From an uncultured delta proteobacterium (GTDB lineage Bacteria; Desulfobacterota; Binatia; UBA9968), in the NCBI GenBank assembly GCA_963737905.1, contig CAVTUQ010000029.1, forward strand, positions 45,223 to 109,222: a stretch of DNA of 64,000 nucleotides, given 5' to 3'. The translations under genes and the position numbers were made by a program. The notes under the pieces were generated by a model that worked only from the letters and a program-made list of their open reading frames with translations, did no database searches and was not told the origin of the DNA. The stretch's first letter is position 1. The number at the start of each line of letters is the position of its first letter. Shown piece by piece: positions 37,376 to 59,500 of this stretch.

Positions 37376-37391
37376 AAGAAACCAGAATTTC

Positions 37392-37550: not shown

Positions 37551-37564
37551 AGAAGAGGTGATTT

Positions 37565-38419
37565 ATGAAACAGCTAACAGCTAACGTGTTTGTGGAGACC
37601 GGACTCAAGGGCGCCAATCACGGCCTCGTGATGACTTCAGATGGCATTGTCTTGATCGACACGCCGCACAAGCCGAGCGATGCCGTGCGCCTCAGAGGAG
37701 AGATCGAGCGGCGCGGCCGGCTCCGCTACATCATCAACACCGAGCCTCACGGTGATCACTGGACTGGCAACGCGTTTTTCAACGTTCCTGTGGTTGCGCA
37801 CGAAGGCGTGCGGTCCCGAATTCTGGGGACTGATCTGGCCGCGCATATTGCCCGCGTGGCATCGTTCGGACCCGACGAGCCGAAACTTCTGGAAAACTAC
37901 AAACCCAATGCGCCGGTGATCACGTTTCAGAGCGAAATGACCTTGCACGTGGGCAATCACACGTTCCATATGATTCACATGCCCGGCCACACGCCGTACC
38001 AAGCAGCAGTGATCGTGCTGGAAGAGGGCATCGTCTTCACCAGCGACAACATCTTCTGCAAAGTACAGACCTGGCTCCAAGAAGCTAACCCGGACCATTG
38101 GCTGAAAGCGCTCGAATCGCTGCGAGCGCTGCGCGAGGAGACTTTTGTCCCCGGTCATGGACCGGTGTGCGATAAGAAATATCTGGACGAACAAGGCTCG
38201 TTCATTCGCGAATGGGTAGATTATGTGCGCGGCGGGATCGAACGCGGGATGACCAAAGAAGAGTCCGTCGCCAACCTGACGGCGATGACGGACAGGTATC
38301 CAATGGATGTCGGTCAAGACGGCATGTCACCCCACGTGATGCGTCTGAACGTCGCCAATCTTTACGACTACCTGACCGGTGCGGGGATCCACAAACGGGA
38401 CAATAAGGGTGGGCAGTAA
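37565..38419 (+). CDS. Metallo-beta-lactamase-fold hydrolase (cyclase-like)
   Basis: LIDTP, NTEPHGDH, PGHTP, FTSDN, VPGHG; RBS GAGGTG. Confidence 0.9.
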   Translation: MKQLTANVFVETGLKGANHGLVMTSDGIVLIDTPHKPSDAVRLRGEIERRGRLRYIINTEPHGDHWTGNAFFNVPVVAHEGVRSRILGTDLAAHIARVASFGPDEPKLLENYKPNAPVITFQSEMTLHVGNHTFHMIHMPGHTPYQAAVIVLEEGIVFTSDNIFCKVQTWLQEANPDHWLKALESLRALREETFVPGHGPVCDKKYLDEQGSFIREWVDYVRGGIERGMTKEESVANLTAMTDRYPMDVGQDGMSPHVMRLNVANLYDYLTGAGIHKRDNKGGQ

Positions 38420-38455
38420 GCAGAGAGCGGTTAGCGGTAAAAAGGGAGACGACCT

Positions 38456-38746
38456 ATGAGTAAGAGAACGATTTGCCTTGCTCTAAGCGCTTTGCTCTTT
38501 GCACTTTGCTCGTCCGTCGAGGCACAGCAACCAGCGAACGTTCCGCGCATAGGCTTCATCAGTGCTACACCGATTTCCGCTATCCAGGCCCGCATCGAGG
38601 CATTCCGGCAGGGATTGCTCCAGGTCGGGTACCAGCAGGGGAAAAATATCTTCATCGAATATCGAGATGGTGAAGGAAAACCGGATCATATCCCGGTACT
38701 CGCGGCCGAGTTGGTGCGTCTCAAGGTAGACGTTATCGCCAGTTAA
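38456..38746 (+). pseudogene. ABC_sub_bind array unit 1: 3'-truncated
   Basis: Signal peptide-AQQP-RIGF...AAELVRLKVDVI, then a stop inside a CAGTTAA heptamer repeat. Confidence 0.85.
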
Positions 38747-38801
38747 CACTGGACAATGGCCGGTTATCAGTTGGAAGAATAAGAGGAGTGAAAATGATGA
38801 A

Positions 38802-39789
38802 ATGGAAAAATCGCTTATCTGCTTACTGGCAACTCTCTTGCTGATAACTGTTTCGTCCGTCGGAGGCGCAGCAGTTACCGACGAAAGTCGCCCGGATAGG
38901 ATTCCTATCATTGCTGTCATCCCCGTCCGCTGCCGCGGCCCGCACGGAAGCTTTCCGGCAAGGTCTGCGCGAGCTTGGTTACGTTGAGGGGAAAAACATC
39001 GTCATTGAGTCGCGATATGCAGAGGGAAAACTCGATCGCCTTCCAGCGCTCGCGGCCGAATTGGTGCGTCTCAAGGTAGACATCATCGTCACGGCCGGTG
39101 GGCAAGCAACCCGCGCCGCCAAGGAAGCAACCCCTACGATTCCTATTGTCATGACGAACGATCCCGATCCCGTTGGCTCCGGGTTCGTCGCCAGTCTCGC
39201 GCGGCCTGGTGGAAACATTACTGGCTTGTCCACGCTTGCCCCGGAGTTAAGCGGAAAACGACTGGAGCTTCTCAGAGAGGTCGTCCCTAAGCTCTCTCGC
39301 GTGGCCATCGTCGGGACTTCAACCCAACCGGGCCACGCGCAAGCGATAAAAGAGCTGGAACTCGCCGCAAAGTCGTTCAAGGTGCAGATTCAATATTTAG
39401 ATGTTTTAGAGTCCAAGGATATCGAAACTGCATTTCGAGCCGCAGCCAAGGGGCGGGCTGACGGAGTCCTCACGCTAACGAGCCCCATCCTCCGTTCTCA
39501 GCGAGCACAGCTTGCAGACCTTGCGGTAAAGAACCGGATCCCCGCGATATACAACGACATCCAGTTTGTAGAAGCCGGGGGACTTATCTTCTACGGCGTG
39601 AGCTTTCTCGACTTGGACCGCCGCGCCGCCACGTATGTCGACAGAATTTTAAAGGGCGCCAAACCTGCTGATCTCCCCGTGGAGCAACCCACCAAGTTCG
39701 AGTTCATCATCAATCTGAAAGCCGCCAAGCAGATCGGCCTGACGATTCCGCCGAATGTGCTGGCGCGAGCGGACAAGGTCATAAGATGA
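38802..39789 (+). pseudogene. ABC_sub_bind unit 2 (frameshift near 38860; possibly a sequencing error)
   Basis: Leader MEKSLICLLATLLL is out of frame with body ORF 38911-39789, which ends [14 protein letters not shown]. Confidence 0.75.
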
Positions 39790-39837
39790 CGAAGGGCCAA
39801 GCGCAGAGAGCAAAGAGCAAGAAACGGGAGAAACCTG

Positions 39838-40829
39838 ATGCGAAGAAACGATATTGTTTTTACGCTTAGCGCTATGCTCTTTGCGCTTTGCTCATCGCGC
39901 CGAAGCGCAGCAGCCGAAGAAAATCCCTGCGATCGAATACCTAACCGCTATCCCTCGTACCTCGCTCGGCGCAGCTCCCCGCATCGAGGCCTTCCGGCAG
40001 GGGTTGCGCGAGCTTGGTTACCTAGAAGGGAAAAACATTTTCATTGAGTGGCGATGGGCAGCGGGAAAACAAGATAGTCTGCCCGGACTTGCGGCCGAGC
40101 TCGTTGAGTCTCAAGGTAGACATCATCGTCTCAGGTGGTTCGACGGCAACCCAGGCCGCCAAGGATGCGACGAGCACGATTCCCATTGTCATATCGCAGG
40201 ACAACGATCCTTTGGCGAACAGGTTTGTCGCCAGTCTGGCCCGGCCCGGTGGAAACATCACCGGTCTGGCTACACTCAGATCTGAGGTGAGCGGAAAACA
40301 CATGGAGATCCTTAAGGAGATCGTTCCGAAGCTCTCCCGCATCGCCGTGTTGGGAACTTCGAACAATCCGGGCAATGCCCAAGCGCTAAAAGAAATTGAA
40401 CTCGCCGCTGATGCGCTCAATGTGCAGCTGCAAATCCTCGACGTTCTGCTTCCCAAAAACATCGAGGTTGCATTTCGCACCGCAATCAAGGGGCGTGCCG
40501 ACGGCATCCTCGCACTGGCGAGTCCCGTTTTGAATTCCCATCGAACCCAGGTTGTCGATCTCGCGGTCAAGAGCCGCCTTCCGGCGATCTATGACAGGCG
40601 AGAATTTATCGATGCCGGGGGGCTGATGACTTACGGCGTGAGCGTCGTTGATATGGACCGACGCGCTGCGGTCTTTGTCGACAAAATTTTGAAAGGCAGA
40701 ACTCCGGCCGAACTTCCGGTAGAGCAGCCAACGAAGTTTGAATTCATCGTCAATCTCAAAGCCGCGAAAGCGATCGGCTTGATGATCCCGCCGAACGTGT
40801 TGGCGCGTGCGGACAAAGTAATTCGGTGA
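39838..40829 (+). pseudogene. ABC_sub_bind unit 3 (two frameshifts)
   Basis: Homologous segments split over ORFs 39838, 39854 and 40044. Confidence 0.75.
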
Positions 40830-40889
40830 GAAGTAAAAAAATGAGACGTAAATAAAACGGAGAGCGCGGGCAAAATCGGGGGAGCGAAA

Positions 40890-41873
40890 ATGATGCGTAG
40901 ACAAATCTTTGTTTGGTTACTGACCACTTTGTTACTGGCAACTGTTTCCGCCCACGCGCAGCAGCCGGCGAAAATTCCGCGAATTGGCTTTGAGTCCGAC
41001 TCACCGGTGACGTCAATTGCCGCGCGAGTCGATGGATTCCGCCAGGGTCTGCGCGAGCTTGGTTACGTCGAGGGGAAGAACATTTTAATCGAGTGGCGCG
41101 CCGCAGAATTGAAGCCCGAGCGGCGCAGCGAGATCGCTGCCGAGCTGGTGCGTCTGAAAGTCGATCTTATCGTCTCGGCTGGGCCGACGATAACGCGCAC
41201 TCTGAGGGAAGCGACGACGACGATACCGATTATTATGGCGCAAGATACCGATCCAGTTGGCAGCGGCTTCGTTGCAAGCTTGGCGAAACCCGGAGGTAAC
41301 ATTACGGGTTTTTCCGCTCTCTCACCGGAGATGAGCGGCAAACAATTGGAACTCATGAAAGAAATCATCCCCAAAATCTCGCGTGTAGCGGTGATTGGCA
41401 ATTCGACCAATCCCGGTGACGCACAAGCACTGCGTGAGACTGTGCTAGCGGCGGGTGCATACGAAATCTATCTGCGATACCTGGAGGTCCAAGATGCCAA
41501 GGATGTCGAGCCGGTGCTGCGCTCCGCCGTCAAGGGGCGCGCCGACGCACTCATAGTGCTGGGCAATCCGATCCTCAATCGCAATCGTCAACAAGTTGTC
41601 GATCTTGCCGCCAAGCTCCGCTTACAGGCGGCGTACGCGCGACCTGAGTTTGTCGAGGCGGGTGGTCTGATGACTTACGGCACCAACTATCCCGAACTTT
41701 TCCGTCGCGCCGCTACTTATGTCGACAAAATATTAAAGGGCGCCCAGCCCGCCGATCTGCCCGTTGAACAACCGGAGAAGTTTGAGTTCATCGTCAATCT
41801 GAAAGCGGCAAAGCAGATTGGACTTACGATTGAGCCCAACGTGCTGGCGCGGGCGGATCGGGTGATTAGATGA
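40890..41873 (+). CDS. ABC_sub_bind unit 4 (intact)
   Basis: Signal peptide AHA-QQP; full motifs through [13 protein letters not shown]. Confidence 0.92.
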   Translation: MMRRQIFVWLLTTLLLATVSAHAQQPAKIPRIGFESDSPVTSIAARVDGFRQGLRELGYVEGKNILIEWRAAELKPERRSEIAAELVRLKVDLIVSAGPTITRTLREATTTIPIIMAQDTDPVGSGFVASLAKPGGNITGFSALSPEMSGKQLELMKEIIPKISRVAVIGNSTNPGDAQALRETVLAAGAYEIYLRYLEVQDAKDVEPVLRSAVKGRADALIVLGNPILNRNRQQVVDLAAKLRLQAAYARPEFVEAGGLMTYGTNYPELFRRAATYVDKILKGAQPADLPVEQPEKFEFIVNLKAAKQIGLTIEPNVLARADRVIR

Positions 41874-42001
41874 AAGCGCTACGCGTGTTCCAATGGTTTC
41901 AAACGTTCGAATGGTGTTAGTACGGATTGGACAAACGCGTTGCGAGAGCGTGAAGCGGTGAGTGGAGGCCTGTCATTGTAAAGCAAACCCGGAGGGAACC
42001 G

Positions 42002-42982
42002 ATGCCGACACATGTTTTTCTCATTGTTTTAACCTTTGTCATTGCGCTTAGTCTCCCCGCCCAGGCGCAGCAGCCGGCGAAGGTCCCGCGGATCGGATAC
42101 CTGAGTGGCGTTTCCCCTGCCGCAGAAGCCGCGCGCCGCGATGCGTTCAACCAGGGGCTGCGCGAGCTAGGCTATATCGAGGGCAAGAGCGTCGTCGTCG
42201 AATATCGCTATTAGGGGGAAAATCGGATCGCCTCGCTTCGTTGGTGGCGGAGCTGCTGCAGCTCAAGCCGGACATCATCGTCACCGGCGGCAGTCCGTCG
42301 ACGCGCGCCGCCAAGGCGGCGACCGCCACGATCCCTATTGTGATGACGAATGATCCCGATCCCGTAGCCAACGGATTAATCGCTAGCCTGGCGCGACCAG
42401 GTGGCAACATCACGGGATTATCCACTCTCGCTCCGGAGCTGAGCGGCAAAAGATTGGAGAAATTAGGAGAAGTACGTTCCCAATCTTTCTCGCGTCGCCA
42501 TCCTCGGGACCTCGACGAGCCCGGCCTACCGGCCCGTCAAGAAAGAGATCGATCTAGCCGCTAACGCTCTCAAGCTTCAGCTTGACTACCAAGACGTGTT
42601 GGATTTTAAGGATATCGAGTCTGCCTTTCGAGCCGCGGTCAAAGGGCGCGCCGACGCAGTCATGACACTCAACAGCGGGATCCTCAATTCCCAGCGAAGC
42701 CAGATCGTAAACCTCGCGGCAAAGCATCACTTTGCCACGATTTATACCCAGGCCGAATTCGTGGAAGTTGGCGGGCTGATGTTCTACGGCGTGAACCTGG
42801 TCGATCTGTCGCGCCGCGCCGCAACCTATGTCGACAAGATTCTCAAAGGCGCCAGACCTGCCGACATTCCTGTCGAGCAAGCAAAGAGGTTCGAGTTCAT
42901 CATCAATCTAAAGGCAGCGAAGCAGATCGGTCTGACGATCCCGCCCAACGTGCTGGCGAGAGCGGACAAGGTCATAAGATAG
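42002..42982 (+). pseudogene. ABC_sub_bind unit 5 (several indels)
   Basis: Segments in ORFs 42002, 42241 and 42596. Confidence 0.8.
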
Positions 42983-43029
42983 CAAAGGGCCAAGCGCAGA
43001 GAGCAAAGAGCAGAAACGGGAGAAACCTC

Positions 43030-44014
43030 ATGCGAAGAAACGATATTGTTTTTACGCTTAGCGCTATGCTCTTTGCGCTTTGCTTTTCCGCTCAGGCGCA
43101 GCAACCGACGAAAGTCGCCCGGATAGGATTCCTACTTGCTGTCTCCCCGTCTGCTGCCGCGGCCCGCACGGAGGTTTTCCGGCAAGGTCTGCGCGAGCTT
43201 GGGTACGTGGAGGCGAAAAACATCGTCATTGAATCGCGATATGCAGAGGGAAATTTCGATCGCCTCCCGGCGCTCGCGGCCGAACTGGTGCGTCTCAAGG
43301 TAGACATCATCGTCACGGCCGGCGGGCAAGCAACCCGCGTCGCCAAGGAAGCAACCCCTACGATTCCCATTGTCATGACGAACGATCCCGATCCCGTTGG
43401 CTCCGGGTTCGTCGCCAGTCTCGGGCGCCCGGGTGGAAACATTACTGGCTTGTCCACGCTTGCCCCGGAGTTAAGCGGAAAACGACTGGAGCTTCTCAGA
43501 GAGGTCGTTCCTAAGCTCTCCCGCGTTGCCATCGTCGGGACTTCAACCCAAGCGGGCCACGCGCAAGCGATAAAAGAGCTGGAACTCGCCGCAAAGGCGT
43601 TCAAGGTGCAGATTCAATATCTAGATGTTTTAAAGTCCAAGGATATCGAGACTGCATTTCGAGCCGCAGCCAAGGGGCGGGCTGACGGATTGCTCACGCT
43701 AACGAGCCCCATCCTCCGTTCTCAGCGAGCACAGCTTGCAGACCTTGCGGTGAAGAACCGGATCCCCGCGATATACAACGACATCCAATTTGTGGAAGCT
43801 GGGGGACTTATCTTCTACGGCGTGAGCTTTCGCGACTTGGACCGGCGCGCTGCAACTTACGTGGACAAGATTCTCAAAGGGCGCTAAGCCCGCCGATCTT
43901 CCGGTCGAGCAACCGACGAAATTCGAGTTCATCATCAATCTGAAAGCCGCCAAGCAGATTGGCCTGACAATCCCGCCGAATGTGCTGGCGCGGGCGGACA
44001 GAGTCATTCGGTGA
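43030..44014 (+). pseudogene. ABC_sub_bind unit 6 (single +1 frameshift at AAAGGGCGCT, ~43880)
   Basis: ORF to 43887; the conserved tail [16 protein letters not shown]...ADRVIR* continues in another frame to 44014. Confidence 0.75.
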
Positions 44015-44068
44015 GGTGTGAGCCGACAGGATGAGGGGGCTAGGAGAACGAATGATGGGTCGAAATCA

Positions 44069-44467
44069 TCACACAATACCCGACGCAATCGGCTCGAACG
44101 TCACTCTACGGGCGTGGTCGTTGAAACAAACCTCGAACTGGTTGAACACTCCGGTTCGGCCGAGAAGATTAAATCCAACACCGAGCCGCTCAGAGAAACC
44201 GATCGGCGCCGTAATTTGCGTGCCGCCGATTTGGACTGGAAGATCGTGAATAAAAGTAGGAATATAGCTCCCGTCGCCAACCACGATCATCTGATGCCTG
44301 CCCGCGCGCCAATCGATACCGATGCGTGCCGCTTCATCGACGTTCAGCATGCTAAACGTCGCCCCAGAGTCAACAAAAACCCAGAGCCTGTGGGCATGGA
44401 TGGAGATGGGTACAATGGGCATCAAATAGCCCCGGTGACGCGTGTAAGGAAATTCTATAGCAGGCAC
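44069..44467 (-). CDS. Retropepsin-like aspartyl protease
   Basis: FVDSGATFS catalytic motif and LLGR motif; 132 aa. Confidence 0.88.
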   Translation of the reverse strand: MPAIEFPYTRHRGYLMPIVPISIHAHRLWVFVDSGATFSMLNVDEAARIGIDWRAGRHQMIVVGDGSYIPTFIHDLPVQIGGTQITAPIGFSERLGVGFNLLGRTGVFNQFEVCFNDHARRVTFEPIASGIV

Positions 44468-44664
44468 GCCATGTCCTCTTCCCGCGGGACACGAAGCACG
44501 GATGGCATCTTGTTAGGTTCAATCTCACGCGCCTTGCTCTCCACTTCTTTTCCGGAATCCCCAACGGCCACCAAAGTCTCATTTACCACGGCGACATACT
44601 TTCCGGCATATTTCGTCACCAGCTCGCTGAAGTGGTCGACAATCCAAAGATCGTCTTTATCCAT
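44455..44664 (-). CDS. DUF5678-like small protein
   Basis: 69 aa; KYAGKYVAVVNETLVAVGDS; overlaps the protease start; upstream TTGACT-18-TAGAGT (44732-44703). Confidence 0.75.
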   Translation of the reverse strand: MDKDDLWIVDHFSELVTKYAGKYVAVVNETLVAVGDSGKEVESKAREIEPNKMPSVLRVPREEDMACLL

Positions 44665-44775
44665 CGTCTTTTCCCTTCTGCTCCAGACACTTTTCGACCT
44701 TAACTCTAAATTGTCTGCGGTCTGCGAGTCAACCTTATCTCGGGTCAATTGTAGCGATTTGATCGGGGTGAGTCC

Positions 44776-45768
44776 ATGAAGAGAACTATCCTGATTTTGG
44801 CATTCGGTTTTATTCTTATGATCGACTTCGTTTCCGCCGACGCGCAGCAGCCGAAGAAAGTCACCCGAATTGGGTATCTATCGTCGCAAGACCCAGCTTA
44901 TGAGTCTGCCCGTGCCGAGGGGATTCGGCTGGCACTTCGCGAGCTCGGCTACATGGAAGGACAGAACATCGCCATCGAGTATCGGTATTCGGAGGGGAAG
45001 ACCGATCGGGCTTCAGAGCTTGCGGCCGAGTTGGTGCGTCTCAACGTCGATATTATCGTGGTAGCAGGAGGGATCATATGGATCAGGGCGGCCAAGAATG
45101 CAGCCAAGTCGATTCCCGTCGTCATGGCGGGCATTGGAAACGACCCTGTCGAAGCAGGCCTGATTGAAAGCCTTGCCCGTCCAGGCGGCAACGTCACAGG
45201 TCTTACAAACCTTACGGGAAAATTGGCTGGCAAGCGGCTGGATCTCCTCAAAGAAGCTGTTCCCAAGCTTGCCCGTGTCGCGGTTCTTTACCAACCCGCC
45301 ACTCCGGCTAATGTGCTCGAGGTAAACGAGGATCTTCCAGTTGCGTCGCGTGTTCTGAAGTTGACGGTTCAGCCTTGGGAGGTACGAGCTGCGGAGGGTT
45401 TTGACGGGGTATTCGATGCGCTAAACAAGCAGCGCCCGGATGGACTCTACGTGGCGGGCAGCCCGCTCACAAATGCTAACCAAAAACGGATCGCGGGATT
45501 GGCATTAAAGAGCCGGTTACCGTCGGTGTTTGCCGAGAGAGGAGCTGTAGACGCCGGTGGGCTCATGTACTACGGGGCGGACCTCGCAGACAGCTACCGG
45601 CGCGTCGCCTATTACGTGGACAGAATCTTGAAGGGCGCCAAGCCGGCTGATTTGCCTGTTGAGCAGCCAACGAAGTTCGAGTTGGTGATTAACCTCAAGA
45701 CCGCGAAGCAGATCGGCGTAACGATTCCGCCGCAGCTGCTCGCCCGGGCGAGTAGGCTCATCAAGTGA
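44776..45768 (+). CDS. ABC_sub_bind unit 7 (intact)
   Basis: Signal peptide ADA-QQP; family motifs; variant tail IPPQLLARASRLIK. Confidence 0.92.
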   Translation: MKRTILILAFGFILMIDFVSADAQQPKKVTRIGYLSSQDPAYESARAEGIRLALRELGYMEGQNIAIEYRYSEGKTDRASELAAELVRLNVDIIVVAGGIIWIRAAKNAAKSIPVVMAGIGNDPVEAGLIESLARPGGNVTGLTNLTGKLAGKRLDLLKEAVPKLARVAVLYQPATPANVLEVNEDLPVASRVLKLTVQPWEVRAAEGFDGVFDALNKQRPDGLYVAGSPLTNANQKRIAGLALKSRLPSVFAERGAVDAGGLMYYGADLADSYRRVAYYVDRILKGAKPADLPVEQPTKFELVINLKTAKQIGVTIPPQLLARASRLIK

Positions 45769-46786
45769 GAAGGGGTGACAAAGTGGATCGAGGCATAGAA
45801 AAATACACGAAGAAAAAAGTCACGGTCGTTATTCTTTGCGCCATGCTCTTTGCGCTTTGCCCGCCCGCCGAGGCGCAGCAGCCGAAGAAAATCCCACGGA
45901 TAGGTTACTTGGGTGCCTTCACCCCTTCCGCTGGCGCCTCCCTCCTTGAAGCTTTCCGCCAAGGGCTGCGCGAGCTTGGCTACGTGGAGGGCCGGAAGAC
46001 TTCATTGATTACCGCTGGGCGGAGGGAACGCCCGATCGGTTCCCAGCCCTTGCCGACGAGCTGATCAATCTCAGGGTAGACGTGATCGTTACACAGAGCA
46101 ACGCAGCGGTGGCAGCTCTTCAGCAGGCGACCCGAACCGTACCCATCGTCGTGGCGGGTATGGGCGATCCTGTTGAGAGCGGCTTCGTCGGCAGCCTCGC
46201 GCGGCCGGCCGGGAACATTACCGGCTTCTCAAATCAAGCCGAAGAGGTCGCAGGCAAATGGGTGGAGCTACTCAGGGAGGCCGTGCCCAAGATTCCCGCA
46301 TCGCCGTCCTCGCAGTTTCCCAGACCTCGTCCCACCGCACCTATTGGGCACAGATCCAAGCGACGGCCCAAGCGTTGAAGGTGACTCCCCAGCGCCAAGA
46401 GGTGGTGGGACCGGACGAGATCGAGCACGCCTTCGCGAACCTCACCAAGGGCCATCCCCAGGGGCTCATCGTACTGCCGCATGCTGTCACCATCGAACGT
46501 CGAACGCAGATCGTGGACCTGTCAGCAAAGAACCGGCTGCCGGGGATGTACCCCTTTAGCTTGTTGTGGAGTCCGGTGGCCTCATGTCCTACGGGACGAA
46601 CTTGGCTGACCTGCACCGGCGGGCCGCCACCTACGTGGGCAAGATTTTGAAAGGCGCGAAACCCGCAGACCTTCCGGTCGAGCGGCCAATAAGTTCGATT
46701 TCATCATTAATCTGAAAGCGGCCAAGCAGATCGGTCTCACGATCCCACCAAATGTACTGGCCAGAGCTGACAAAGTAATTCGATGA
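45765..46786 (+). pseudogene. ABC_sub_bind unit 8 (multiple indels; ACG at the probable start)
   Basis: Segments in ORFs 45765, 46082 and 46258; tail [26 protein letters not shown] ends at 46786. Confidence 0.8.
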
Positions 46787-47805
46787 AACATCGCAAAGCG
46801 CCTGCGGAGAAACGCCGGAGAAGTCATGGGAGAAAAGTCTTCATTGGCTTAACGCTCGGCGCCTTGCTTTTTGTCTTATGCCCATGCGCCCATGCGCAAC
46901 AGCAAGCCAGGATACCTAAGATCGGCTGGCTCTCAGCCCGCCGCGCTTCAAACACTGGCCAAGAAATTATCGTCCGTATGCTGCGTGACCTCGGCTACGT
47001 TGAAGGCAAGAACGTAGTTTTCGAGTATCGATTCGCGGATGATAAGCTCGACCGGCTTCCCGCCCTTGCCGATGAGTTGGTCCGCCTCAAGGTCGATGTT
47101 CTCCTCACGCCCGGAACTCCCGGCGCCCTAGCTCTAAAAAAAGCTACCCGGACTATCCCCATCGTTTTTTTAGACGCCACGGACCCCGTTGCGGCTGGAC
47201 TGGTTGATAGCTTAGCTCGACCCGGGGGAAACATCACGGGGTTCAGCAGCATCGAGGCAATGTTGGCTGGCAAACGTCTCGAGTTACTCAAGGAAACCGT
47301 TTCGAAAATTTCTCGGGTTGCGGTCCTGTGGGATCCTCGGAATCCAGCCTCTATACAGGAATGGAAAGAGAGCCAACTCGCGGCCCGGGAACTCGGCCTG
47401 CAACTTCATTCTATGGAAGTAAGCAGCGCCGACAAATACCAGGACGCGTTCAAAGAGGCCATCAGGGCGCGTAGCGGCGCTCTTGCCGTGTTGTCGACCC
47501 CATTGGCCTCTTCCAATCAAGACCAGCTCGCGGAGCTGGCGGCGAGAAATCGGTTGCCGGCGATTTACGTCCAGGGAAGTTTTATTATCGATGGAGGTTT
47601 GATGTCCTATGGACCCGACCGCACCGAACGCTACAGGCGCATAGCGGTTTTTGTCGACAAAATTCTCAAAGGTACAAAACCAGCCGATCTCCCGGTGGAG
47701 CAGCCGAACAAGTTCGAGTTCATCATAAATCTCAAAGCCGCAAAGCAGATCGGATTAACAATACCACCGAATGTATTAGCCAGAGCTGACAAAGTAATCC
47801 GATGA
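46783..47805 (+). CDS. ABC_sub_bind unit 9 (open frame; exact start uncertain)
   Basis: AHA-QQQ, GYVEGKN, SLARPGGNITG, conserved tail. Confidence 0.88.
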   Translation: MKHRKAPAEKRRRSHGRKVFIGLTLGALLFVLCPCAHAQQQARIPKIGWLSARRASNTGQEIIVRMLRDLGYVEGKNVVFEYRFADDKLDRLPALADELVRLKVDVLLTPGTPGALALKKATRTIPIVFLDATDPVAAGLVDSLARPGGNITGFSSIEAMLAGKRLELLKETVSKISRVAVLWDPRNPASIQEWKESQLAARELGLQLHSMEVSSADKYQDAFKEAIRARSGALAVLSTPLASSNQDQLAELAARNRLPAIYVQGSFIIDGGLMSYGPDRTERYRRIAVFVDKILKGTKPADLPVEQPNKFEFIINLKAAKQIGLTIPPNVLARADKVIR

Positions 47806-47894
47806 TCGAACAATCTAAAATCCAAAATCGAAAATCTAAAATAGTAGGGATTCCGCCGAACGTGTTGGCGAGGGCGGATCGGGTCATAAGATGA
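47806..47894 (+). repeat. 'Empty' unit: AAAATC heptamer leader joined to a duplicate 3' tail ([15 protein letters not shown])
   Basis: tcgaacaatctaaaatccaaaatcgaaaatctaaaatagtagggattccgccgaacgtgttggcgagggcggatcgggtcataagatga. Confidence 0.8.
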
Positions 47895-47940
47895 AAGTTA
47901 CGATTTTCATTGTCGATTTTAGAGTGAGGGAGACAAAAAC

Positions 47941-48987
47941 ATGACTAAGAAAACTCGAGCGACGATCCGATGGGTTCCATCCGACAATCGGAAATCTAAA
48001 ATCGAAATCGAAAATGGTGGGGATCCTAGGCATCTTTTTCACTGTGTGCTTGTTAGCGCGGGGGTTCAAGCGCAGCAGCCAACCAAAGTGCCCCGGATAG
48101 GATATCTAAGTGGGGCCTCCTCTTCCACAATCGCGGCTCGCATCGAGGCATTCCGGCAAGGGCTGCGCGAGCTTGGTTATATAGAAGGGAAAAACATTAT
48201 CATCGAATGTCGATATGCAGAGGGAAAAGCTCGATCGCCTTCCGGCGCTCGCGGCCGAGCTAGTGCGTCTCAAAGTGGACGTGCATCTGTCTGCCGGGGC
48301 AGCGGTCACCGGTCCTGCTAAGGAACGCCACGGAGACAATCCCTATTGTCATGGCTCAGGATACCGATCCTGTCGGAAACGGGTTCGTCGCCAGCCTTGC
48401 GCGACCTGGCGGAAACATTACCGGACTCTCCTCCTATTCACCGGAGATAAACGGAAAACGAGTAGAGCTTCTTAAGGAGATCGTACCTAAGCTTTCCCGC
48501 TTAGCCGTGCTCGGGCAGTCAACCTATCCAGGCAACTCCCAAGCGTTAAAAGAAACGGAACTCGCCGCAGAAGCGCTGAAGTTACAGCTCCAATACCTAG
48601 ACGTGTAAGATCCAAGGACATCGAGACGGCGTTTCGAGCAGCAAGCAAGACGCGTGCCGGCGGAGTCCTCGTGCTGCAGAACAATGTCCTCAATTCTCAG
48701 CGAAAACAAACTGTTGATCTCGCGATAAAGAACCGACTTCCGACGATCTACCACGTTCCAGAATTTTTGGAAGCGGAGGGCTGATAAGTTACGCGGCGAG
48801 CATCAACGACTTGTACCGGCGCTCCGCCACATACGTGGACAAGATTTTGAAAGGCGCCAAGCCTGCCGACCTCCCGGTGGAGCAGCCGATCAAGTTCGAG
48901 TTCGTCATCAATCTGAAAGCGGCCAAGCAGATTGGATTAACCATTCCACCCAACGTTTTGGCTAGAGCAGACAAAGTCATAAGATGA
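47941..48987 (+). pseudogene. ABC_sub_bind unit 10 (multiple indels); leader contains the AAAATC heptamer repeat
   Basis: Segments in ORFs 47941, 48215 and 48351; tail ends at 48987. Confidence 0.8.
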
Positions 48988-49103
48988 CGGTGAGTAGTGA
49001 GCAGAAAGCGGTGAGCAGCGGAAAACGCGGAAGGCAACCCACAAGTAAGAACGTCTTTTTTACTGGGACTTCAGGCATTCCTGTGAAGTCGGACTCGGAG
49101 ATT

Positions 49104-49190
49104 GCACCGCGAAGGCGCGGAGGACGCGGAGTAAAGAGTTCTTGATTAAAAAATTCTCCGATCTCTGCGAACTCGGCGCCTCTGTGGTGA
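49104..49190. repeat. CACCGCGAAGGCGCGGAGGACGCGGAG ... CTCTGCG..CTCTGTGGTG inverted 9-bp-period repeat
   Basis: Direct reading of the two arms. Confidence 0.7.
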
Positions 49191-49240
49191 ATACTTTTTC
49201 ACAGAAAACCCGGAACAACCTTTTTACTAAGGAGGATCCT

Positions 49241-50233
49241 ATGAAGGCAATGATTTTGGCAATGAGCCTGGTTACCTCGATTTCTTTTTGCACCGCCGTC
49301 TCGGCTCAGCTCACTAAAGTGATCATCGGCAACAACACGCTCAGCACCAACGGTCTTCCCGCGTGGATGGCCAAGGAAGCCGGGATATTTCGCAATAACG
49401 GCCTCGATGTCCAGATCGTCTATTTCCGAGGAGGAACTATTACGGCCATGGCTTTGATCGCCCGCGAGACTCCGATCAGCCAGGTTTCCGGGCCGCCGAT
49501 CGTGAGCGCTGCTCTCAAGGGAGCCGACGCGGTCATGGTTGCAGCCGGCAACGTGGTCTCAGAGTATTGGCTCATGAGCAAGCCCGAGCTCAAGACCGGC
49601 GCGCAGCTCAAGGGAGGCTCGGTTGCCATCGCTACCTTCGGTGGCTTGTCCGATTCTCTCTCTCGGGTTGCGCTTCAGAAGCTTGGATTGAATCCTGTGA
49701 AGGATGTCACCCTCGTGCAGATCGGAACGATCCCGGAGCGCTTGAGCGCGTTAGAGTCGGGAAAGGTTCAGGCCGCGATGCTCAACGCACCCGACAACTT
49801 CCGGGCCCAGAAAAGAGGGCTGTATAAATTAATTGAGGTGCGCCTTCCTTACCAGGGCATCGGGGTGGGAACGACGCGCACATTCATCAGGGAAAATCCC
49901 GACGTTGTCCGGCGCTATGTCAAATCTCAGGTCGAAGCCGTTCACCGCCTCAAGACCGACCGGGAAGGAGGAATCAAGGTATTGGGGAAATATCTCAACA
50001 TACCGGACCGAGAGGTCCTGGAAAGAGCCTACGATGACGCAATTACTGATGAGAAATTTCCCCCAAAACAGTACCCGAGCCTGGAGGGAATCAAAAAGAT
50101 TCTCGAACCGCTGGCGGAGACGGACCCAAAAGCAAAAGCCGCGAAACCCGAGGACTTTGTCGATATGCGCTTCATTAAGGAACTGGACGACAGCGGTTTC
50201 ATCGACGAGCTTTACAAGGGCAGGAAACGTTAG
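49241..50233 (+). CDS. NitT/TauT-type solute-binding protein
   Basis: RBS AAGGAGG; signal peptide; WMAKEAGIFRNNGLDV, PEDFVDMRFIKELDDSGFI. Confidence 0.9.
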   Translation: MKAMILAMSLVTSISFCTAVSAQLTKVIIGNNTLSTNGLPAWMAKEAGIFRNNGLDVQIVYFRGGTITAMALIARETPISQVSGPPIVSAALKGADAVMVAAGNVVSEYWLMSKPELKTGAQLKGGSVAIATFGGLSDSLSRVALQKLGLNPVKDVTLVQIGTIPERLSALESGKVQAAMLNAPDNFRAQKRGLYKLIEVRLPYQGIGVGTTRTFIRENPDVVRRYVKSQVEAVHRLKTDREGGIKVLGKYLNIPDREVLERAYDDAITDEKFPPKQYPSLEGIKKILEPLAETDPKAKAAKPEDFVDMRFIKELDDSGFIDELYKGRKR

Positions 50234-50299
50234 TGAACCGGCGTCCAGCGGTCGCGAGATGCCAAGCGCTCGGTTTGGGCGGCCAGGGTGACCAGTTAA

Positions 50300-50468
50300 C
50301 CCTGTTCCGACATTGATTCGACCATTACGATGATTCTTCCCCTCTGCAACCGAGTGAAGATCTGGCCTTGTCGATGTTTCACCAGGGGTGAGGTTTTGAT
50401 AGCATCGCATTAGCGAACGTTTGGCTATAGTCATTCCAAATTTACGGGTTTTTATTGTCGGAACAGGG
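50300..50468. mobile_element. 169-bp MITE-like element with 13-bp TIRs and TTAA target duplication
   Basis: TTAA-CCCTGTTCCGACA ... TGTCGGAACAGGG-TTAA; removing it restores a 7-bp-period repeat. Confidence 0.8.
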
Positions 50469-50518
50469 TTAACAGTAAGCAGAGAGCAGTGAGCAGTAAA
50501 AACAAGAGGAGCCAAACA

Positions 50519-51481
50519 ATGATGAGAAAGTTTAATGTCCGCTTACTGCTTACTGTCTTCCTGCTTACTGTTTCTTTCGCCGAGGCGCAGCAGCCAACGA
50601 AAATCCCGCGGATAGGTTATGTCGCCACTACTGCTCCCGATACACCTAACAACTTGGCATTCCGACGAGGACTGCGAGACCTCGGTTATATTGAAGGGAA
50701 AAACATCCTGGTTGAGGATCGCTACGCCGCGGGAAAAGCGGACCGCATCCCTAACCTTGTGGCGGAACTGGTGCAAATGAAAGTAGATGTCCTTGTCTCC
50801 CCGGTTGTAGCCGCGATCCGCGCAGCGAAGGAGTCGACCAAGACGATCCCCATTGTCATGGTAATAGCTGATGATCCAGTCGCAACGGGGCTAGTCGATA
50901 GTTTGGCCCGTCCCGGAGGAAATATCACGGGACTCACCAGACTTACTCAGGAGCTGAACGGAAAACGCCTGGAACTTCTTAAGGAAGTGGTCCCGACAGC
51001 AACGCGTGTCGGAGTCCTCTCAGTTGCCGGCTTTACAATCTTTAGAGAGTACGAGGCTGCGGCGCGCGTGCTAAAGATACATCTTCAGTCCCTGGAGGTA
51101 CGAGCTCCGAACCCTGATTTGGAGGGTGCATTTCGAGATGCGGTCAAGGGGCAGGTGAGAGCGCTTATCGTGGCGAGGGCGCTCGTCGGTTACCGAAAGC
51201 AGATTGCCGACCTCGCCATCAAAAACCGCCTGCCTCTCATGTCCGAAGGGAGTGACTTCGTGGACGCTGGTGGTCTCGTGTCTTATGCAGCTATCGATGC
51301 AGAGAATTACCGGCGCGCCGCTTATTACGTCGACAGAATCCTGAAAGGCGCTAAGCCAGCAGACCTGCCCGTAGAGCAGCCAACGAAGTTCGAATTCATC
51401 ATCAATCTCAAAGCGGCCAAGCAGATCGGATTAACGGTACCGCCGAACGTGCTGGCGAGAGCGGATCGGGTTATTCGCTGA
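50519..51481 (+). CDS. ABC_sub_bind unit 11 (intact)
   Basis: RBS GAGGAG; AEA-QQP; conserved tail. Confidence 0.92.
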   Translation: MMRKFNVRLLLTVFLLTVSFAEAQQPTKIPRIGYVATTAPDTPNNLAFRRGLRDLGYIEGKNILVEDRYAAGKADRIPNLVAELVQMKVDVLVSPVVAAIRAAKESTKTIPIVMVIADDPVATGLVDSLARPGGNITGLTRLTQELNGKRLELLKEVVPTATRVGVLSVAGFTIFREYEAAARVLKIHLQSLEVRAPNPDLEGAFRDAVKGQVRALIVARALVGYRKQIADLAIKNRLPLMSEGSDFVDAGGLVSYAAIDAENYRRAAYYVDRILKGAKPADLPVEQPTKFEFIINLKAAKQIGLTVPPNVLARADRVIR

Positions 51482-51528
51482 AGAAGGCAATAGGTATAAG
51501 GCAACAGGCAATAGCAGAAGTGAAAAAC

Positions 51529-52509
51529 ATGACCAAGAGAGTCATCCTCGGTTTCGTGACAACAGTCATGGTAATCGCCCCGTTTGCGCACGCGCAGCAA
51601 CCGGGGAAAATCCCGCGCATCGGATATCTCAATGCTTCTTCGGCTTCCTCAGCCGCATCCCGTGTCGAAGCTTTTCGTCGGGGTATGCGCGAGCTTGGCT
51701 ACGTAGAGGGAAAAAACATTGTCATTGAATATCGCTTTGCCGAGGGCAAACTAGAGCGCTTGAGGCCGCTTACGACCGAACTGGTGCAGCTCAATGTCGA
51801 ACTCATTGTCTCGGGTGGTCCGACAGTAACCCGGCCCCTCAAGGAAGCAACTTCCACGATTCCAATTGTCATGGGGTTTGACGATGACCCCGTCGGCGCG
51901 GGATTTGTCGCTAGCCTGGCGCGGCCGGGCGGAAATATTACGGGATTGTCCACCCTGGCCCCGGAAATAAGCGGAAAACAATTGGAGATTTTGAAAGAGA
52001 TCGTTCCCAAACTCTCTCGCGTGGCCGTCTTCGGAAATTCGACCCGCTCAGGTACGTCACTATCGCTAAAAGAAATGGAGCTCGCCGCGGCAGCGTTCAA
52101 AATACAGATTCAAAATCTGGACATACAGAACCCCAAGGACATTGACACGGCCTTCGGCGCCGCGAGCAAGGGGCATGCTGAGGCCATCGTCGTGCTGGGT
52201 AGTCCTGTGGTCAATCTTCGCCGAACCCAGATTGCAGAGCTTGCAGTGAAACACCGAATGCCGGGGGTGTATGCGCAGCCAGAGTTTCTACAGGCTGGCG
52301 GTCTCATCTATTACGGCGCTAGCTTCACCGATATTTTCCAGCGTGCCGCTACGTACGTCGACAAGATTCTGAAAGGCGCCAAGCCCGCCGAACTTCCCGT
52401 CGAGCAGCCGAAAAAGTTCGAGTTCATGATCAATCTTAAGGCCGCAAAGCAGATCGGATTAACCATCCCACCGAATGTGTTGGCCAGAGCAGACAGGGTG
52501 ATTAAGTAA
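51529..52509 (+). CDS. ABC_sub_bind unit 12 (intact)
   Basis: AHA-QQP; conserved tail. Confidence 0.92.
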   Translation: MTKRVILGFVTTVMVIAPFAHAQQPGKIPRIGYLNASSASSAASRVEAFRRGMRELGYVEGKNIVIEYRFAEGKLERLRPLTTELVQLNVELIVSGGPTVTRPLKEATSTIPIVMGFDDDPVGAGFVASLARPGGNITGLSTLAPEISGKQLEILKEIVPKLSRVAVFGNSTRSGTSLSLKEMELAAAAFKIQIQNLDIQNPKDIDTAFGAASKGHAEAIVVLGSPVVNLRRTQIAELAVKHRMPGVYAQPEFLQAGGLIYYGASFTDIFQRAATYVDKILKGAKPAELPVEQPKKFEFMINLKAAKQIGLTIPPNVLARADRVIK

Positions 52510-52532
52510 TTTGATTTTGGATTGAGGAAGCC

Positions 52533-53507
52533 ATGAATAAAAAGATCAACTCCTTTCTGCTAGCAATTGTTCTTCTGGCGGCTGTCCTACCAGCCGAAGC
52601 CCAGCAGCCAAAGCTCTACCGAATCGGTGTCGTTACTGCAGGCGGCGCATGGTACGAAGTAATTGACGGGCTCCGGGTCGGCCTCAGGCAGCTGGGACTT
52701 GAAGAGGGGAAGCAGTTTGCTTTGGCGATCTAAGATACGAAGGGCAATGCGAAGGTGGCGGAGGAGGCGGCAAGGAATCTCGAAAAAGAGAAAGTCAACC
52801 TGATATATACAACTCAAACCTCAGTCACCTTAGCAACAAAGCGGGCGACGGCAGACATCCCTATCGTCTTCTGTGCCGGGGCCGACCCGGTTGAACTCGG
52901 GCTAGTGGAGAGTTTCGCAAGACCGGGCGGAAGACTTACAGGCGTCTTCTACCGGGACACCGACCTCACCGGAAAGCGTCTGGAACTTCTGAAGGAGATT
53001 GTCCCGAAGCTCCGCCGCGTAGTGACGTTCTATAACCCCAGTAATCCTGTTTCCGTCGACTCCGCCAAGTTGGTGCGGGAAACTGCGGGACAGATGGGAA
53101 TCCAGCTGGTCGAACGGCATGTCGCTTCCGTCGAGGAACTTCGGGCAGGTGTGCAATCGCTCAAGGCCGGGGAAGTGGATGCTGTCTTTGAAGTGTCGGA
53201 CGCCCTGACGGTTATCCAAGATCAACTGATCATCGACACGGCAAGGGTCAAGAGGTTGCCGACGATGTTCGTCAACCACAGTTCTGTCGTCAAAGGAGGT
53301 CTGGCCAGCTACAGCGTAAGCCGGCACGAAGTTGGCCGCCTGTCAGCGAAGTACGTCCAGCGCATTCTTACCGGCGTCAAACCTAAGGACTTGCCGGTGG
53401 AGGGGATCGATAAGATCTCACTTATCATCAATCTCAAGACGGCAAAGGATATCGGCCTGACGATTCCGCAGTCGGTACTGTACCGGGCAGACAAAGTCAT
53501 TAAATGA
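52533..53507 (+). pseudogene. ABC_sub_bind unit 13 (divergent subfamily; in-frame TAA at 52731-52733)
   Basis: ORFs 52533-52733 and 52755-53507 share one frame; tail IPQSVLYRADKVIK. Confidence 0.8.
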
Positions 53508-53557
53508 CAGTGAGCGGTGAGCAGTAAGCAGCAAAAACCGCGGGGAGAAACTCATCA

Positions 53558-54544
53558 ATGGATAAAAAAGTCTTTCACCTTGCTCTTTGCACGATGCTCA
53601 TTGCATTTTGCTGTTCTGCTCAGGCGCAGCAGGCAATGAAAGTCCCCCGGATAGGATTTCTAAGTGCTGCCTCGCCGTCCGCTATCTCGGCTCGCATCGA
53701 GGCATTTCGGCAGGGTCTGCGCGAGCTCGGGTACGTCGAGGGGAAAAACATTATCATTGAGTGGCGATCTGCAGAGGGAAAACTAGATCGGCTTAGTGAG
53801 ATTACGGCCGAACTAGTGCGCCTCAAGGTAGACGTCATCGTCACGGGTGGTCCGATACCAACTCGTGCCGCCAAGGAAGCAACTGTTACGATTCCTATTG
53901 TCATGGCGTTTGATATTGATCCCGTTGGCTTGGGGTTCATCGCCAGCCTAGCGCGACCTGGTGGGAACATTACTGGATTGTCCACGCTTGCCCCGGAGAT
54001 AAGCGGAAAGCGACTGGAGCTTTTGAAGGAGATCGTTCCTAAGCTCTCGCATGTGGCCGTCTTTGGGACTTCGACTTTTCCGGGCAACGCACAAGCGTTA
54101 AAAGAGACGGAACGCGCCGCAGGGGCGCTCGCCGTGCAGCTTCAATACCTCGATTTACGAGGTTCCAAGGGTTTTGAGACCGCATTTCGGGACGCAACCA
54201 AGGGGCGGGCTGATGGGATTCTTATGCTCGTGTGGGGAGTCGCCCTTGATCCTCACCGAAAACAGCTCGTAGAATTGGCAGCAAAGAGCCGGCTCCCTGC
54301 AATATACGCAGATCGGGAACATGTGGAAGCCGGGGGGCTTATGTCCTACGGCGTGAGCATTACCGATTCGTTCCGACGCGCTGCCACATATGTGGACAAG
54401 ATTCTAAAGGGAAGAAAGCCAGCCGATCTTCCAGTGGAACAGCCGAAGAAGTTCGAGTTTATCATCAATCTGAAAGCAGCGAAGCAGATCGGCCTAATAA
54501 TACCGCCGAATGTGCTGGCGCGGGCGGATCAGGTCATCAGATGA
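53558..54544 (+). CDS. ABC_sub_bind unit 14 (intact)
   Basis: AQA-QQ; conserved tail ending ADQVIR. Confidence 0.92.
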   Translation: MDKKVFHLALCTMLIAFCCSAQAQQAMKVPRIGFLSAASPSAISARIEAFRQGLRELGYVEGKNIIIEWRSAEGKLDRLSEITAELVRLKVDVIVTGGPIPTRAAKEATVTIPIVMAFDIDPVGLGFIASLARPGGNITGLSTLAPEISGKRLELLKEIVPKLSHVAVFGTSTFPGNAQALKETERAAGALAVQLQYLDLRGSKGFETAFRDATKGRADGILMLVWGVALDPHRKQLVELAAKSRLPAIYADREHVEAGGLMSYGVSITDSFRRAATYVDKILKGRKPADLPVEQPKKFEFIINLKAAKQIGLIIPPNVLARADQVIR

Positions 54545-54705
54545 GAAGTGTCGAGTGTCAAGTGTCGAGTGACAAGACGAGCGGAACGAAGCCTATCCGC
54601 ACTCAACCTTTCATGGTCCGACTCAAGCGATTATCCACTTGTAGACCTGAAGATGGATCTGGCACAGAAGCAGAGTTTGGGCTATTATCCTCCCGAGGTC
54701 AAATC

Positions 54706-54939
54706 ATGGAACACGCATCGATCCCCGATCCTCCCGGATTTAGCAATCTTTCGAAGGCCGAGCAGATTCGCTATTTGCAAGCACTTTGGGACCGGATCTC
54801 CGAGAACCCGGATGACATTCCTGTCCTGGGGTCTCATCTCAAACTTGCTGAAAAAAGACTCGCGGCTTATCGACGGAATCCGAAGCGAGCTCGCCCCGCC
54901 TATCAGGTTCTGGACCGGTTGCGCAAAAAGTCCGAGTGA
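54706..54939 (+). CDS. Putative addiction-module antitoxin
   Basis: LSKAEQIRYLQALWDRI...HLKLAEKRLAAYRRNP pattern; GTGA overlap with the toxin. Confidence 0.8.
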   Translation: MEHASIPDPPGFSNLSKAEQIRYLQALWDRISENPDDIPVLGSHLKLAEKRLAAYRRNPKRARPAYQVLDRLRKKSE

Positions 54940-55238: not shown

Positions 55239-55265
55239 CGGGTTTACCGCGATGATACGATTTTT

Positions 55266-59377: not shown

Positions 59378-59390
59378 GGCAGGCTGCTGC

Positions 59391-59466: not shown

Positions 59467-59500
59467 GATTTTCGCTCGCGTAGCAAGAAAGGAGAGTGGG

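Follow-up and report, generated by a model that had tools for sequence, protein, structure and literature searches.

Introduction

Substrate-binding proteins of the family PF04392 (ABC_sub_bind) have so far been tied only to the import of tryptophan, tyrosine and phenylalanine, as far as the available text of PMC10443332 goes. Here, an array of 14 units of this family, numbered u1 to u14 in the order of their positions, was analysed in a stretch of 64,000 nucleotides (the window; the last 64 kb of contig C29, CAVTUQ010000029.1) from the genome of an uncultured bacterium of the Binatia (G000; 6.7 Mb in 46 contigs, 87% complete, 6.7% contamination) and was compared with the closest described systems. 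With a probability of roughly 0.6, the region is read as a PF04392 paralog array from an old, lineage-wide birth-and-death expansion, in which the C-terminal tail is kept at the protein level and for which histidine kinases of the dCache-HAMP-GAF type are the likeliest partners.

The canonical PF04392 receptors of ATP-binding cassette (ABC) importers with solved structures (3LKV, 3LFT and 6HNI) belong to the same family as the units described here (E-values of 1.9e-35, 1.1e-25 and 1.6e-22, respectively) and carry the same C-terminal motif. They differ in that the present units have no cognate permease or ATPase nearby and none evident in the genome, and in that the copy number is massive. The closest analogue is found in the binding proteins of the tripartite tricarboxylate transporters (TTT; Bug/TctC, PF03401), for which the accessible part of PMC5994714 reports 434 genes in Rhodoplanes, arrays of up to nine genes and similar expansions in Bordetella and Cupriavidus, and in which sensing was proposed as an alternative to transport. 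Tens to hundreds of paralogs, tandem arrays, low identity between neighbours, far fewer membrane partners and a proposed sensing role are shared by both (as described in the same part of PMC5994714). The likeness is one of analogy only, since the present proteins are PF04392 members of the type I fold and not TctC members; the arrays are also longer (14 units here, about 18 on contig C27) with many broken copies, toxin-antitoxin genes are enriched, and the linked membrane protein is one family of dCache histidine kinases instead of TctAB.

A second kind of described system is that of the binding-protein-dependent kinases, with LuxP-LuxQ, HptA-HptS, TorT-TorS and XylFII-LytS as examples and with the kinase-stimulating binding proteins encoded near signalling genes (PMC8050422, in its accessible part). 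These systems and the present family have in common that a binding-protein gene stands beside a sensor kinase gene, and the periplasmic domains of LuxQ and HptS are dCache-like according to the text available. In the known systems, however, one binding protein serves one kinase, whereas here up to 12 paralogs flank one kinase gene, dozens more PF04392 paralogs lie in kinase-less arrays, and the system is known from genes and one predicted complex. PF04392 was not mentioned in the review PMC8050422 by full-text search. A full-text search of the literature, with most subscription journals and the supplements outside its scope, gave no account of expanded PF04392 families or of a connection between PF04392 and dCache kinases, and no paper describing a PF04392-kinase linkage was found in a search on orphan expansions in Binatota or in one on binding proteins with dCache kinases.

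Expansion of the PF04392 family and its age

The PF04392 genes of the genome were counted by matches to the Pfam model and by a family profile built for this analysis. The former gave 127 matches and the latter gave 185 matched pieces, 60 of which are near-full copies in a single frame. Arrays were found on eight contigs (C2, C7, C26, C27, C29, C31, C33 and C37). The expansion is one of orphans: the 127 matches stand against four Liv-type permease loci and four kinase matches.

The relatives searched were 30 genomes, namely 18 of the same family (f1, including the unpublished genomes G006 and G012), five of a second family (f2) and seven of a third family (f3). PF04392 matches were present in 18/18 genomes of f1 (mostly 23-53 among the matches listed; 16/16 when G006 and G012 were left aside), in 4/5 of f2 and in 0/7 of f3. 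In a tree of 70 copies, the median terminal branch was 0.33 changes per site, and the window units were scattered among the other arrays and L077, a locus of the nearest long-contig relative (11 label changes for 13 rows, shuffled mean 12.2). Only u3 and u4 had clear counterparts in L077, with an identity (78% at the nucleotide level) equal to that of the flanking HydB and MBL genes (76-77%), and the gene order differs. The comparison of unit order with relatives, which had been advised in a preliminary description of this DNA made from the letters alone, accordingly found no stable synteny of array content with L077. For the same-genus genomes G001 and G002, the contigs are too short for synteny, and the best matches to the array are just 72-81% identical.

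As read from these sequences, the pattern appears to be that of old duplications with continuing gain, loss and rearrangement, and the expansion would evolve by duplication, divergence and decay. By itself, the array is an extreme but otherwise ordinary case of a tandem array with birth-and-death evolution, in a family of orphan binding proteins. An allelic copy of the array from a second strain was also considered as the source of the paralogs and was rejected, since only u8 (92.3% to contig C7) and u13 (86% to contig C32) have close copies and the flanks are unduplicated.

Linkage of PF04392 genes to a sensor kinase

What goes beyond a routine tandem array is the conserved genetic coupling of the PF04392 family to one sensor kinase. 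The neighbourhoods of 79 related loci were surveyed with flanks of up to 10 kb, and the neighbour proteins were clustered. Orphan NMT1 binding proteins formed the commonest cluster (20 loci), followed by a large membrane sensor (11/79 loci); sigma-54 response regulators were found in six loci. Seven of the eight sensors scanned have the architecture dCache_1-HAMP-GAF-HisKA-HATPase_c. The kinase gene starts 23-470 nt after a PF04392 unit on the same strand, often with more units behind, and this layout was seen in loci labelled Binatia, Proteobacteria, Syntrophobacteraceae and Verrucomicrobiia. In L003, L057, L010 and L044, arrays flank the kinase gene on the same strand, with six units before and six after it in L003.

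The kinase periplasmic domain has four matches in the present genome. Each is no more than 555 nt away from a PF04392 unit, and one is located inside the array of C37. For the kinase survey, 30 kinase loci with flanks of 1.5 kb were used, and a PF04392 unit or a piece of one was found directly upstream on the same strand in 24 of them (22/28 without the present genome, and 20/25 when the unpublished genomes were also left out). Across the relatives, the kinase domain was found in 17/18 genomes of f1, in 3/5 of f2, which are exactly the three rich in PF04392, and in 0/7 of the PF04392-free f3. The kinase-adjacent PF04392 proteins keep the tail motif, some of them sit in well-supported clades together with 9/13 window rows, and the remaining members of the clade of u13 adjoin sensor kinase genes.

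A complex of mature u14 with the periplasmic domain of the C37 kinase was modelled, with a median score of 0.52 (0.52, 0.15 and 0.53 in the single runs) and a best score of 0.00 in three controls; the runs share at least 93% of the contacts and the pLDDT (predicted local distance difference test) of the partner is at least 84. In the calibration of the tool, the mark was reached by 58/80 solved complexes and by 2/110 mismatched pairs, and scores of 0.60 or below were obtained for only seven of those 80 and for both mismatches. The model lends weak support to the complex.

On these data, the most likely partners would be a small number of dCache-HAMP-GAF histidine kinases, encoded directly downstream of PF04392 genes at other places in the genome and in relatives, and many diversified binding proteins would report to few sensors. 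The PF04392 proteins would bind ligands and would dock on the kinase, and the same may apply to the units of the window. The preliminary description had suggested that the tail might dock on a shared partner; this idea survives, and a candidate partner can now be named, with the dCache-HAMP-GAF histidine kinase as the best lead. A wider proposal, which is held as tentative and rather doubtful, is that a diversified repertoire of periplasmic receptors docks on a handful of dCache kinases by conserved surfaces including the tail, as a many-to-one chemosensory system with birth-and-death evolution. If true, such a system would evolve much like the chemoreceptor gene families of animals, and thousands of annotations as 'ABC transporter substrate-binding protein' in soil bacteria of several phyla would denote sensor subunits. 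The role of the hundreds of orphan binding proteins in some bacteria is a long-standing question, which becomes testable here because of the conserved coupling of PF04392 to the kinase: the kinase is a directly testable partner, and its family recurs beside PF04392 orphans in this genome, in the relatives and in soil genomes labelled as other phyla.

Several points weigh against the reading of the array as part of an expansion with kinase partners. The window array has no kinase gene beside it, in contrast to the 4/4 matches elsewhere in the genome and the 24/30 loci overall, and the search with the kinase periplasmic domain gave no match on the contig of the window. Six of the 30 kinase loci have no PF04392 unit upstream (two of the six are cut by contig ends), and G003 (82% complete) has 32 PF04392 matches and no kinase match. 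The kinase-adjacent proteins partly cluster apart (13 label changes against 17.2 in shuffles, a value as low in 4/500), so that the dedicated co-sensors may be a subset of the PF04392 proteins. The tail motif occurs also in canonical, transporter-linked homologues and is not specific to the kinase. A score in the range of the u14-kinase model is, according to the tool, more often wrong than right without a good prior, and it may echo the likeness to the solved LuxP-LuxQ complex. The relatives are not statistically independent samples, and a cognate permease could be missing from a genome of this completeness. A link to a regulator was also not indicated by the promoters, as three one-mismatch matches to sigma-54 promoters were found in the window against 4.3 expected, and the counts of sigma-70-like promoters and terminators were not above those of shuffled sequence.

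Two further observations concern the kinases. At C26:87295-89079 of the present genome (L096:1296-3080), a PF04392 domain is fused directly to HisKA-HATPase_c and is followed by a gene for a sigma-54 response regulator; the fusion holds most of the tail motif and has no signal peptide, and it would be a genuine cytoplasmic sensor or else a chimera produced by a deletion. The kinases of L003, L057, L053, L060, L056, L044, L010 and L031 were aligned with the C37 kinase, and dCache kinases from genomes labelled Binatia, Verrucomicrobiia, Proteobacteria and Syntrophobacteraceae were 72-77% identical to it over about 800 residues, which suggests recent horizontal transfer or mislabelled bins.

Orphan status and possible nutrient scavenging

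Permeases were searched for as PF02653, the family to which the permease of PF04392 systems is presumed by us to belong. The statement of the preliminary description that no permease or ATPase is present in the 64 kb was borne out: none of the 99 matches to the ABC ATPase (PF00005) and none of the nine matches to PF02653 in the genome lies on the contig, and no permease or ATPase was found among the 51 open reading frames (ORFs) of the window that were scanned. The cognate permease and ATPase genes that stand beside the binding-protein gene of an ABC importer are absent at the array, and relative to ABC importers the PF04392 genes are true orphans.

PF02653 is represented by four loci in the genome; those on C7, C22 and C2 were scanned and are of the Liv/Urt type, and that on C4 was seen by its gene layout only. 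Nutrient scavenging as for the Bug/TTT orphans, in which many binding proteins feed few shared importers (e.g., these four Liv/Urt-type systems or an unrecognised transporter) and the tail is the docking face for the transporter, is considered unlikely, though with some weight behind it. The PF04392 proteins of known function are receptors of importers for the three aromatic amino acids (PMC10443332, in its available text), and the idea of many binding proteins for few transporters is standard for TTT orphans (PMC5994714, likewise). On C7, an array of ten units precedes a Liv-type operon by about 1.7 kb on the same strand, and the window and related loci are rich in genes for catabolic enzymes (hydantoinases and amidohydrolases) and in the orphan NMT1 genes of 20/79 loci. 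On the other hand, a PF02653-like permease was found in the flanks of 0/79 related loci, and the Liv-type operons on C7 and C22 carry their own receptor gene of the Peripla_BP_6 type. Permease counts also do not track PF04392 counts in the relatives, with 44 PF04392 and 0 PF02653 matches in G013 (E<=1e-10), 29 and 2 in G005, and 0 and 4-18 in f3, respectively.

Conservation of the tail and divergence of the remaining protein

A codon alignment was made of 51 full-length PF04392 copies from the whole genome, seven of which are from the window array (the six intact units and u2). Four-fold identity was scored at the four-fold degenerate sites of identical residues, with codon usage alone as the baseline. 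Among the 51 copies, amino-acid identity fell from 0.68-0.76 in the tail to 0.38 directly behind the RIG strand and to 0.26-0.33 in the middle; for the last 45 codons of the seven window copies it was 0.85. The contrast drawn in the preliminary description, between variable regions after RIG and in the middle and about 45 nearly invariant codons at the end, holds at the amino-acid level.

The synonymous sites behave differently. Four-fold identity in the tail was 0.40 for the 51 copies and 0.39 for the seven window copies (at a tail amino-acid identity of 0.73-0.85), compared with 0.33 and 0.36, respectively, in the body and 0.28 from codon usage alone. The low synonymous divergence (dS) that had been named as the mark of concerted evolution was looked for in this way and was not found in the tail, whose synonymous sites are near saturation. 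Synonymous codons are mixed at every column of the tail, and tail DNA is 66-85% identical between units. The solved members of the family align with the units from end to end, including the tail, and the tail motif aligns residue by residue with the C-termini of 3LKV (Vibrio) and 3LFT (Streptococcus). Because the synonymous sites are near saturation and the motif is present in distant homologues, the tail is an ancient, family-wide feature at the protein level and not a product of concerted evolution. The earlier idea that the shared 3' segment serves as a substrate for recombination is refuted by the same near-saturated sites, together with the low identity of the tail DNA and the motif in 3LKV and 3LFT. 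In general, a conserved gene end is evidence of DNA exchange only if the synonymous sites are conserved too.

The C-terminal 45-58 residues would serve both the structure and the contact with a partner, and would be preserved by purifying selection at the protein level and not by exchange of DNA. The variable stretches, one directly behind the first strand and one in mid-protein, are the sites at which the paralogs have diverged. Their divergence may reflect ligand specificity.

The highest four-fold identity in the gene, above that of the tail, was found in the codons of the signal-peptidase site (0.51-0.63); the alanine codon directly before the conserved QQ is GCG in 41/49 copies (e.g., window positions 53623-53634).

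Structure of the array

The 14 PF04392 units lie on the plus strand at 38441-54541 with a period of about 1.0-1.1 kb. The Pfam model was matched by all five array units scanned with it (E-values from 2e-42 to 6e-55; 146-187 bits, cut-off 25.9), and the family profile matches all 14 units. Spacers range from a 4-nt overlap of stop and start codons (u7/u8 and u8/u9) to about 135 nt, and several neighbouring units are 38-64 nt apart. The features of the region are as follows.

38441-38743, plus strand: u1, N-terminal fragment of a PF04392 unit, 96 codons, covering profile positions 3-98 only (profile match)
38848-39789, plus strand: u2, PF04392 unit without an in-frame signal peptide, 92.8% identical to u6 over 920 nt
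39838-40829, plus strand: u3, PF04392 unit broken by frameshift, with its first 73 nt 99% identical to the start of u6
40890-41873, plus strand: u4, intact PF04392 gene, 327 aa (Pfam match)
42002-42982, plus strand: u5, PF04392 unit in three frame pieces
43030-44014, plus strand: u6, PF04392 unit with the tail out of frame from near 43885
44069-44748, minus strand: inserted pair of a DUF5678 gene (44455-44748) and a retropepsin-like aspartyl protease gene (44069-44467) (Pfam match)
44776-45768, plus strand: u7, intact PF04392 gene, 330 aa (Pfam match)
45765-46786, plus strand: u8, PF04392 unit split into five frame pieces, with an intact copy at 92.3% identity on contig C7
46783-47805, plus strand: u9, intact PF04392 gene, 340 aa (Pfam match)
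47849-47897, plus strand: stray remnant of a unit tail, 49 nt (from DNA comparison between units)
47941-48987, plus strand: u10, PF04392 unit in five frame pieces
49064-49222, strand unassigned: copy of a dispersed repeat of about 158 nt, before the NMT1 gene
49142-50233, plus strand: inserted gene for an NMT1-family binding protein, a family other than PF04392 (Pfam match)
50489-51481, plus strand: u11, intact PF04392 gene, 330 aa
51520-52509, plus strand: u12, intact PF04392 gene, 329 aa
52515-53507, plus strand: u13, divergent PF04392 unit with an in-frame TAA at 52731-52733
53558-54544, plus strand: u14, intact PF04392 gene, 328 aa (Pfam match)
54541-55238, plus strand: toxin-antitoxin pair that caps the array, Unstab_antitox (54541-54939) and ParE_toxin (54936-55238)
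32325-33266, plus strand: solitary intact PF04392 gene upstream of the array

The preliminary description had counted 14 co-oriented receptor genes with mostly short spacers. The number, the orientation and the spacing of the units were confirmed by the profile matches and by spacers from -4 to about 135 nt, and the term gene is too generous, as only six of the 14 units (u4, u7, u9, u11, u12 and u14) are intact as assembled; about 12 frameshifts in total are spread over u3, u5, u6, u8 and u10. The intact units begin with a hydrophobic N-terminus that closes in a conserved A-x-A / QQ motif, a putative export signal. The DUF5678-protease pair reported within the array and the RelE/ParE module reported at its end were both recovered as Pfam matches at the positions listed above, the latter as a pair of the ParDE type (Unstab_antitox 39.1 bits, cut-off 23.3; ParE_toxin 38.1 bits, cut-off 23) with genes that overlap by 4 nt. 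As for the outlying copy, which had been said to abut a vapBC-like pair, a PIN gene was confirmed at 451-882 by a Pfam match, its supposed partner (ORF 225-482, minus strand) matched no family, and the PF04392 copy itself, near 1037-1761, is likewise broken.

The dispersed repeat has at least 15 further copies with 83-96% identity, which are distributed over many contigs of this genome, and parts of it were found with 84-93% identity in the same-genus genomes G001 and G002. No Rfam family was matched by the repeat, which may be a miniature mobile element.

Frame breaks by decay or by assembly error

Contigs from four soil and bog metagenome runs, all of them short, were aligned to the array. 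Near-identical short-read contigs carry one extra base at 45999, 46563, 46690 and 48771, and that at 45999 was seen in two runs from two studies. Each of the four single-base insertions joins adjacent frame pieces, by which three breaks are removed in u8 and one in u10; at least four of the about 13 breaks are therefore either consensus errors or specific to the assembled strain. As a background for the genome, frameshifts interrupt five of about 94 ABC ATPase domains (about 0.13 breaks per kb), namely at C12:193053-193495, C35:38692-39121, C38:5378-5837, C2:45153-45588 and C7:432443-432890, so that indel errors or pseudogenes are present at a background level in the rest of the assembly too. 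Among the 79 related loci, the 19 in records with names of the type contig_N, which are probably long-read assemblies, contain 95 fragments and 69 full units, and the 60 in other records contain 33 fragments and 149 full units.

All of these figures would be in keeping with an array that is mostly dead DNA or in part an assembly artefact, i.e., a graveyard of decaying duplicates in which decay is inflated by indel errors, as would the eight of the 14 units that are not intact, the stray tail remnant and the 5' fragment. Such an explanation is nevertheless improbable. The six intact units keep strong purifying selection on the tail and core motifs, the density of breaks in the array (about 0.9 per kb) is roughly seven times the genome baseline, fragments occur in short-read assemblies as well, and the retention of the expansion in all 18 relatives of the family argues for function. 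It is concluded that the decay is real in part (u1, u2, u13 and the 49-nt remnant) and overstated in part. Consensus error may account for much of what looks like gene decay when such arrays are taken from long-contig metagenome assemblies.

Recombination, the integron comparison and toxin-antitoxin genes

The preliminary description had also proposed a cassette-like array maintained by recombination. With the arrays of chromosomal integrons the present array shares a long run of short units on the same strand, with toxin-antitoxin genes inside and at the end; it differs from them in having neither attC sites nor an integrase on the contig, and in that some of its units overlap and all are paralogs of a single family. 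The search for attC was made as an inverted-repeat scan of the array, with no attC covariance model, and found no recurring attC-like site between units. Only three hairpins, each specific to one unit and spanning the spacer and the signal-peptide codons, were obtained by the scan (u3, u6 and u11). In the spacer at 50460-50572, which runs into u11, the reverse complement of the signal-peptide codons of u11 is present, and a strong hairpin is predicted there around the start codon (z about -5); the same kind of arrangement, with another sequence, is found at u3 and u6, and it is not family-wide. The remark that no recombinase is visible in the window agrees with the 12 matches to tyrosine recombinases (PF00589) in the genome, none of which lies on C29. 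An integron cassette array was rejected, as there is no recurring attC-like repeat, there is no integrase on the contig and all units are paralogs.

Recent exchange is scarce. Genome-wide, only two recent duplicate pairs were found (u2/u6 at 92.8%, and one pair on C19), and in 137 kb of array DNA a same-strand search gave only 18 tracts of at least 40 nt with at least 90% identity. The first pair belongs to a recent mosaic, 38864-39892 against 43012-44007, in which the body and tail of u2 resemble u6, and the spacer and first codons of u3 resemble u6 (99%); the mosaic was left by the tandem duplication of a u6-like gene and a later replacement or loss. Three low-depth soil runs gave no joints between units, and the joints of the run X6, with sides of at most 39 nt, fit paralogs or other organisms (no contig spans two units of a near-identical strain).

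Toxin-antitoxin-type genes are associated with the PF04392 units, as the preliminary description had supposed, and the association is real: 8/36 matches lie within 1 kb of a unit, compared with a mean of 1.2 under random placement, and 0/5000 random draws reached eight. By family, 2/4 ParE_toxin, 4/30 PIN and 2/2 DUF5678 matches are within this distance, both DUF5678 matches of the genome even within 200 nt. The modules may stabilise the arrays or may simply land where insertions cost little. The other DUF5678 gene (C8:255251-255352; L098:3004-3330) adjoins a broken PF04392 unit and is followed by an ORF with a weak likeness to aspartyl proteases that stays below the Pfam cut-off. The DUF5678 and protease genes together behave as a small mobile module of two genes would.

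A repertoire of integron-like or otherwise recombination-maintained cassettes, in which shuffling or gene conversion acts on the DNA of the 3' segment and the toxin-antitoxin modules give stability, would account for the enrichment of these genes, for the u2/u3/u6 mosaic, for the unit order unlike that in L077 and for the exact matches of at least 20 nt between units, which are about twice as frequent in the tail (651/1744 within 18% of the unit length). The last point is what would be expected of the most constrained peptide. This account is highly improbable: it is largely refuted by the dS test and by the low identity of the tail DNA, few long tracts of high identity exist, units that overlap by 4 nt or lie 38-64 nt apart have no attC-like inverted repeat between them, no recombinase lies on the contig, all units are paralogs, unlike integron cassettes, and the joints in the soil runs fit paralogs. 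A birth-and-death array with a tail kept at the protein level agrees with the same data.

Promoters, RNA structure and other features of the window

A shared RNA structure at the 5' end of the units was considered and rejected, as the folding of 140 nt at the starts of 71 units had a mean z of -0.07, compared with -0.45 for internal controls; unusually good folds at the 5' end were confined to a few units (u11, for example, with z -5.0). No family was found by an Rfam search of 37000-56000.

The window also contains 14 ORFs for binding proteins of the NMT1 clan and one TctC ORF, without transporter genes, at 3937-8240, 12093-13070, 17536-25662, 30635-31612, 58284-60490 and 63026-64000. They are interspersed with genes for hydantoinases, amidohydrolases, CoA-transferases and Rieske oxygenases. 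SelB and SelA of the selenocysteine machinery are encoded on the minus strand at 26991-30471.

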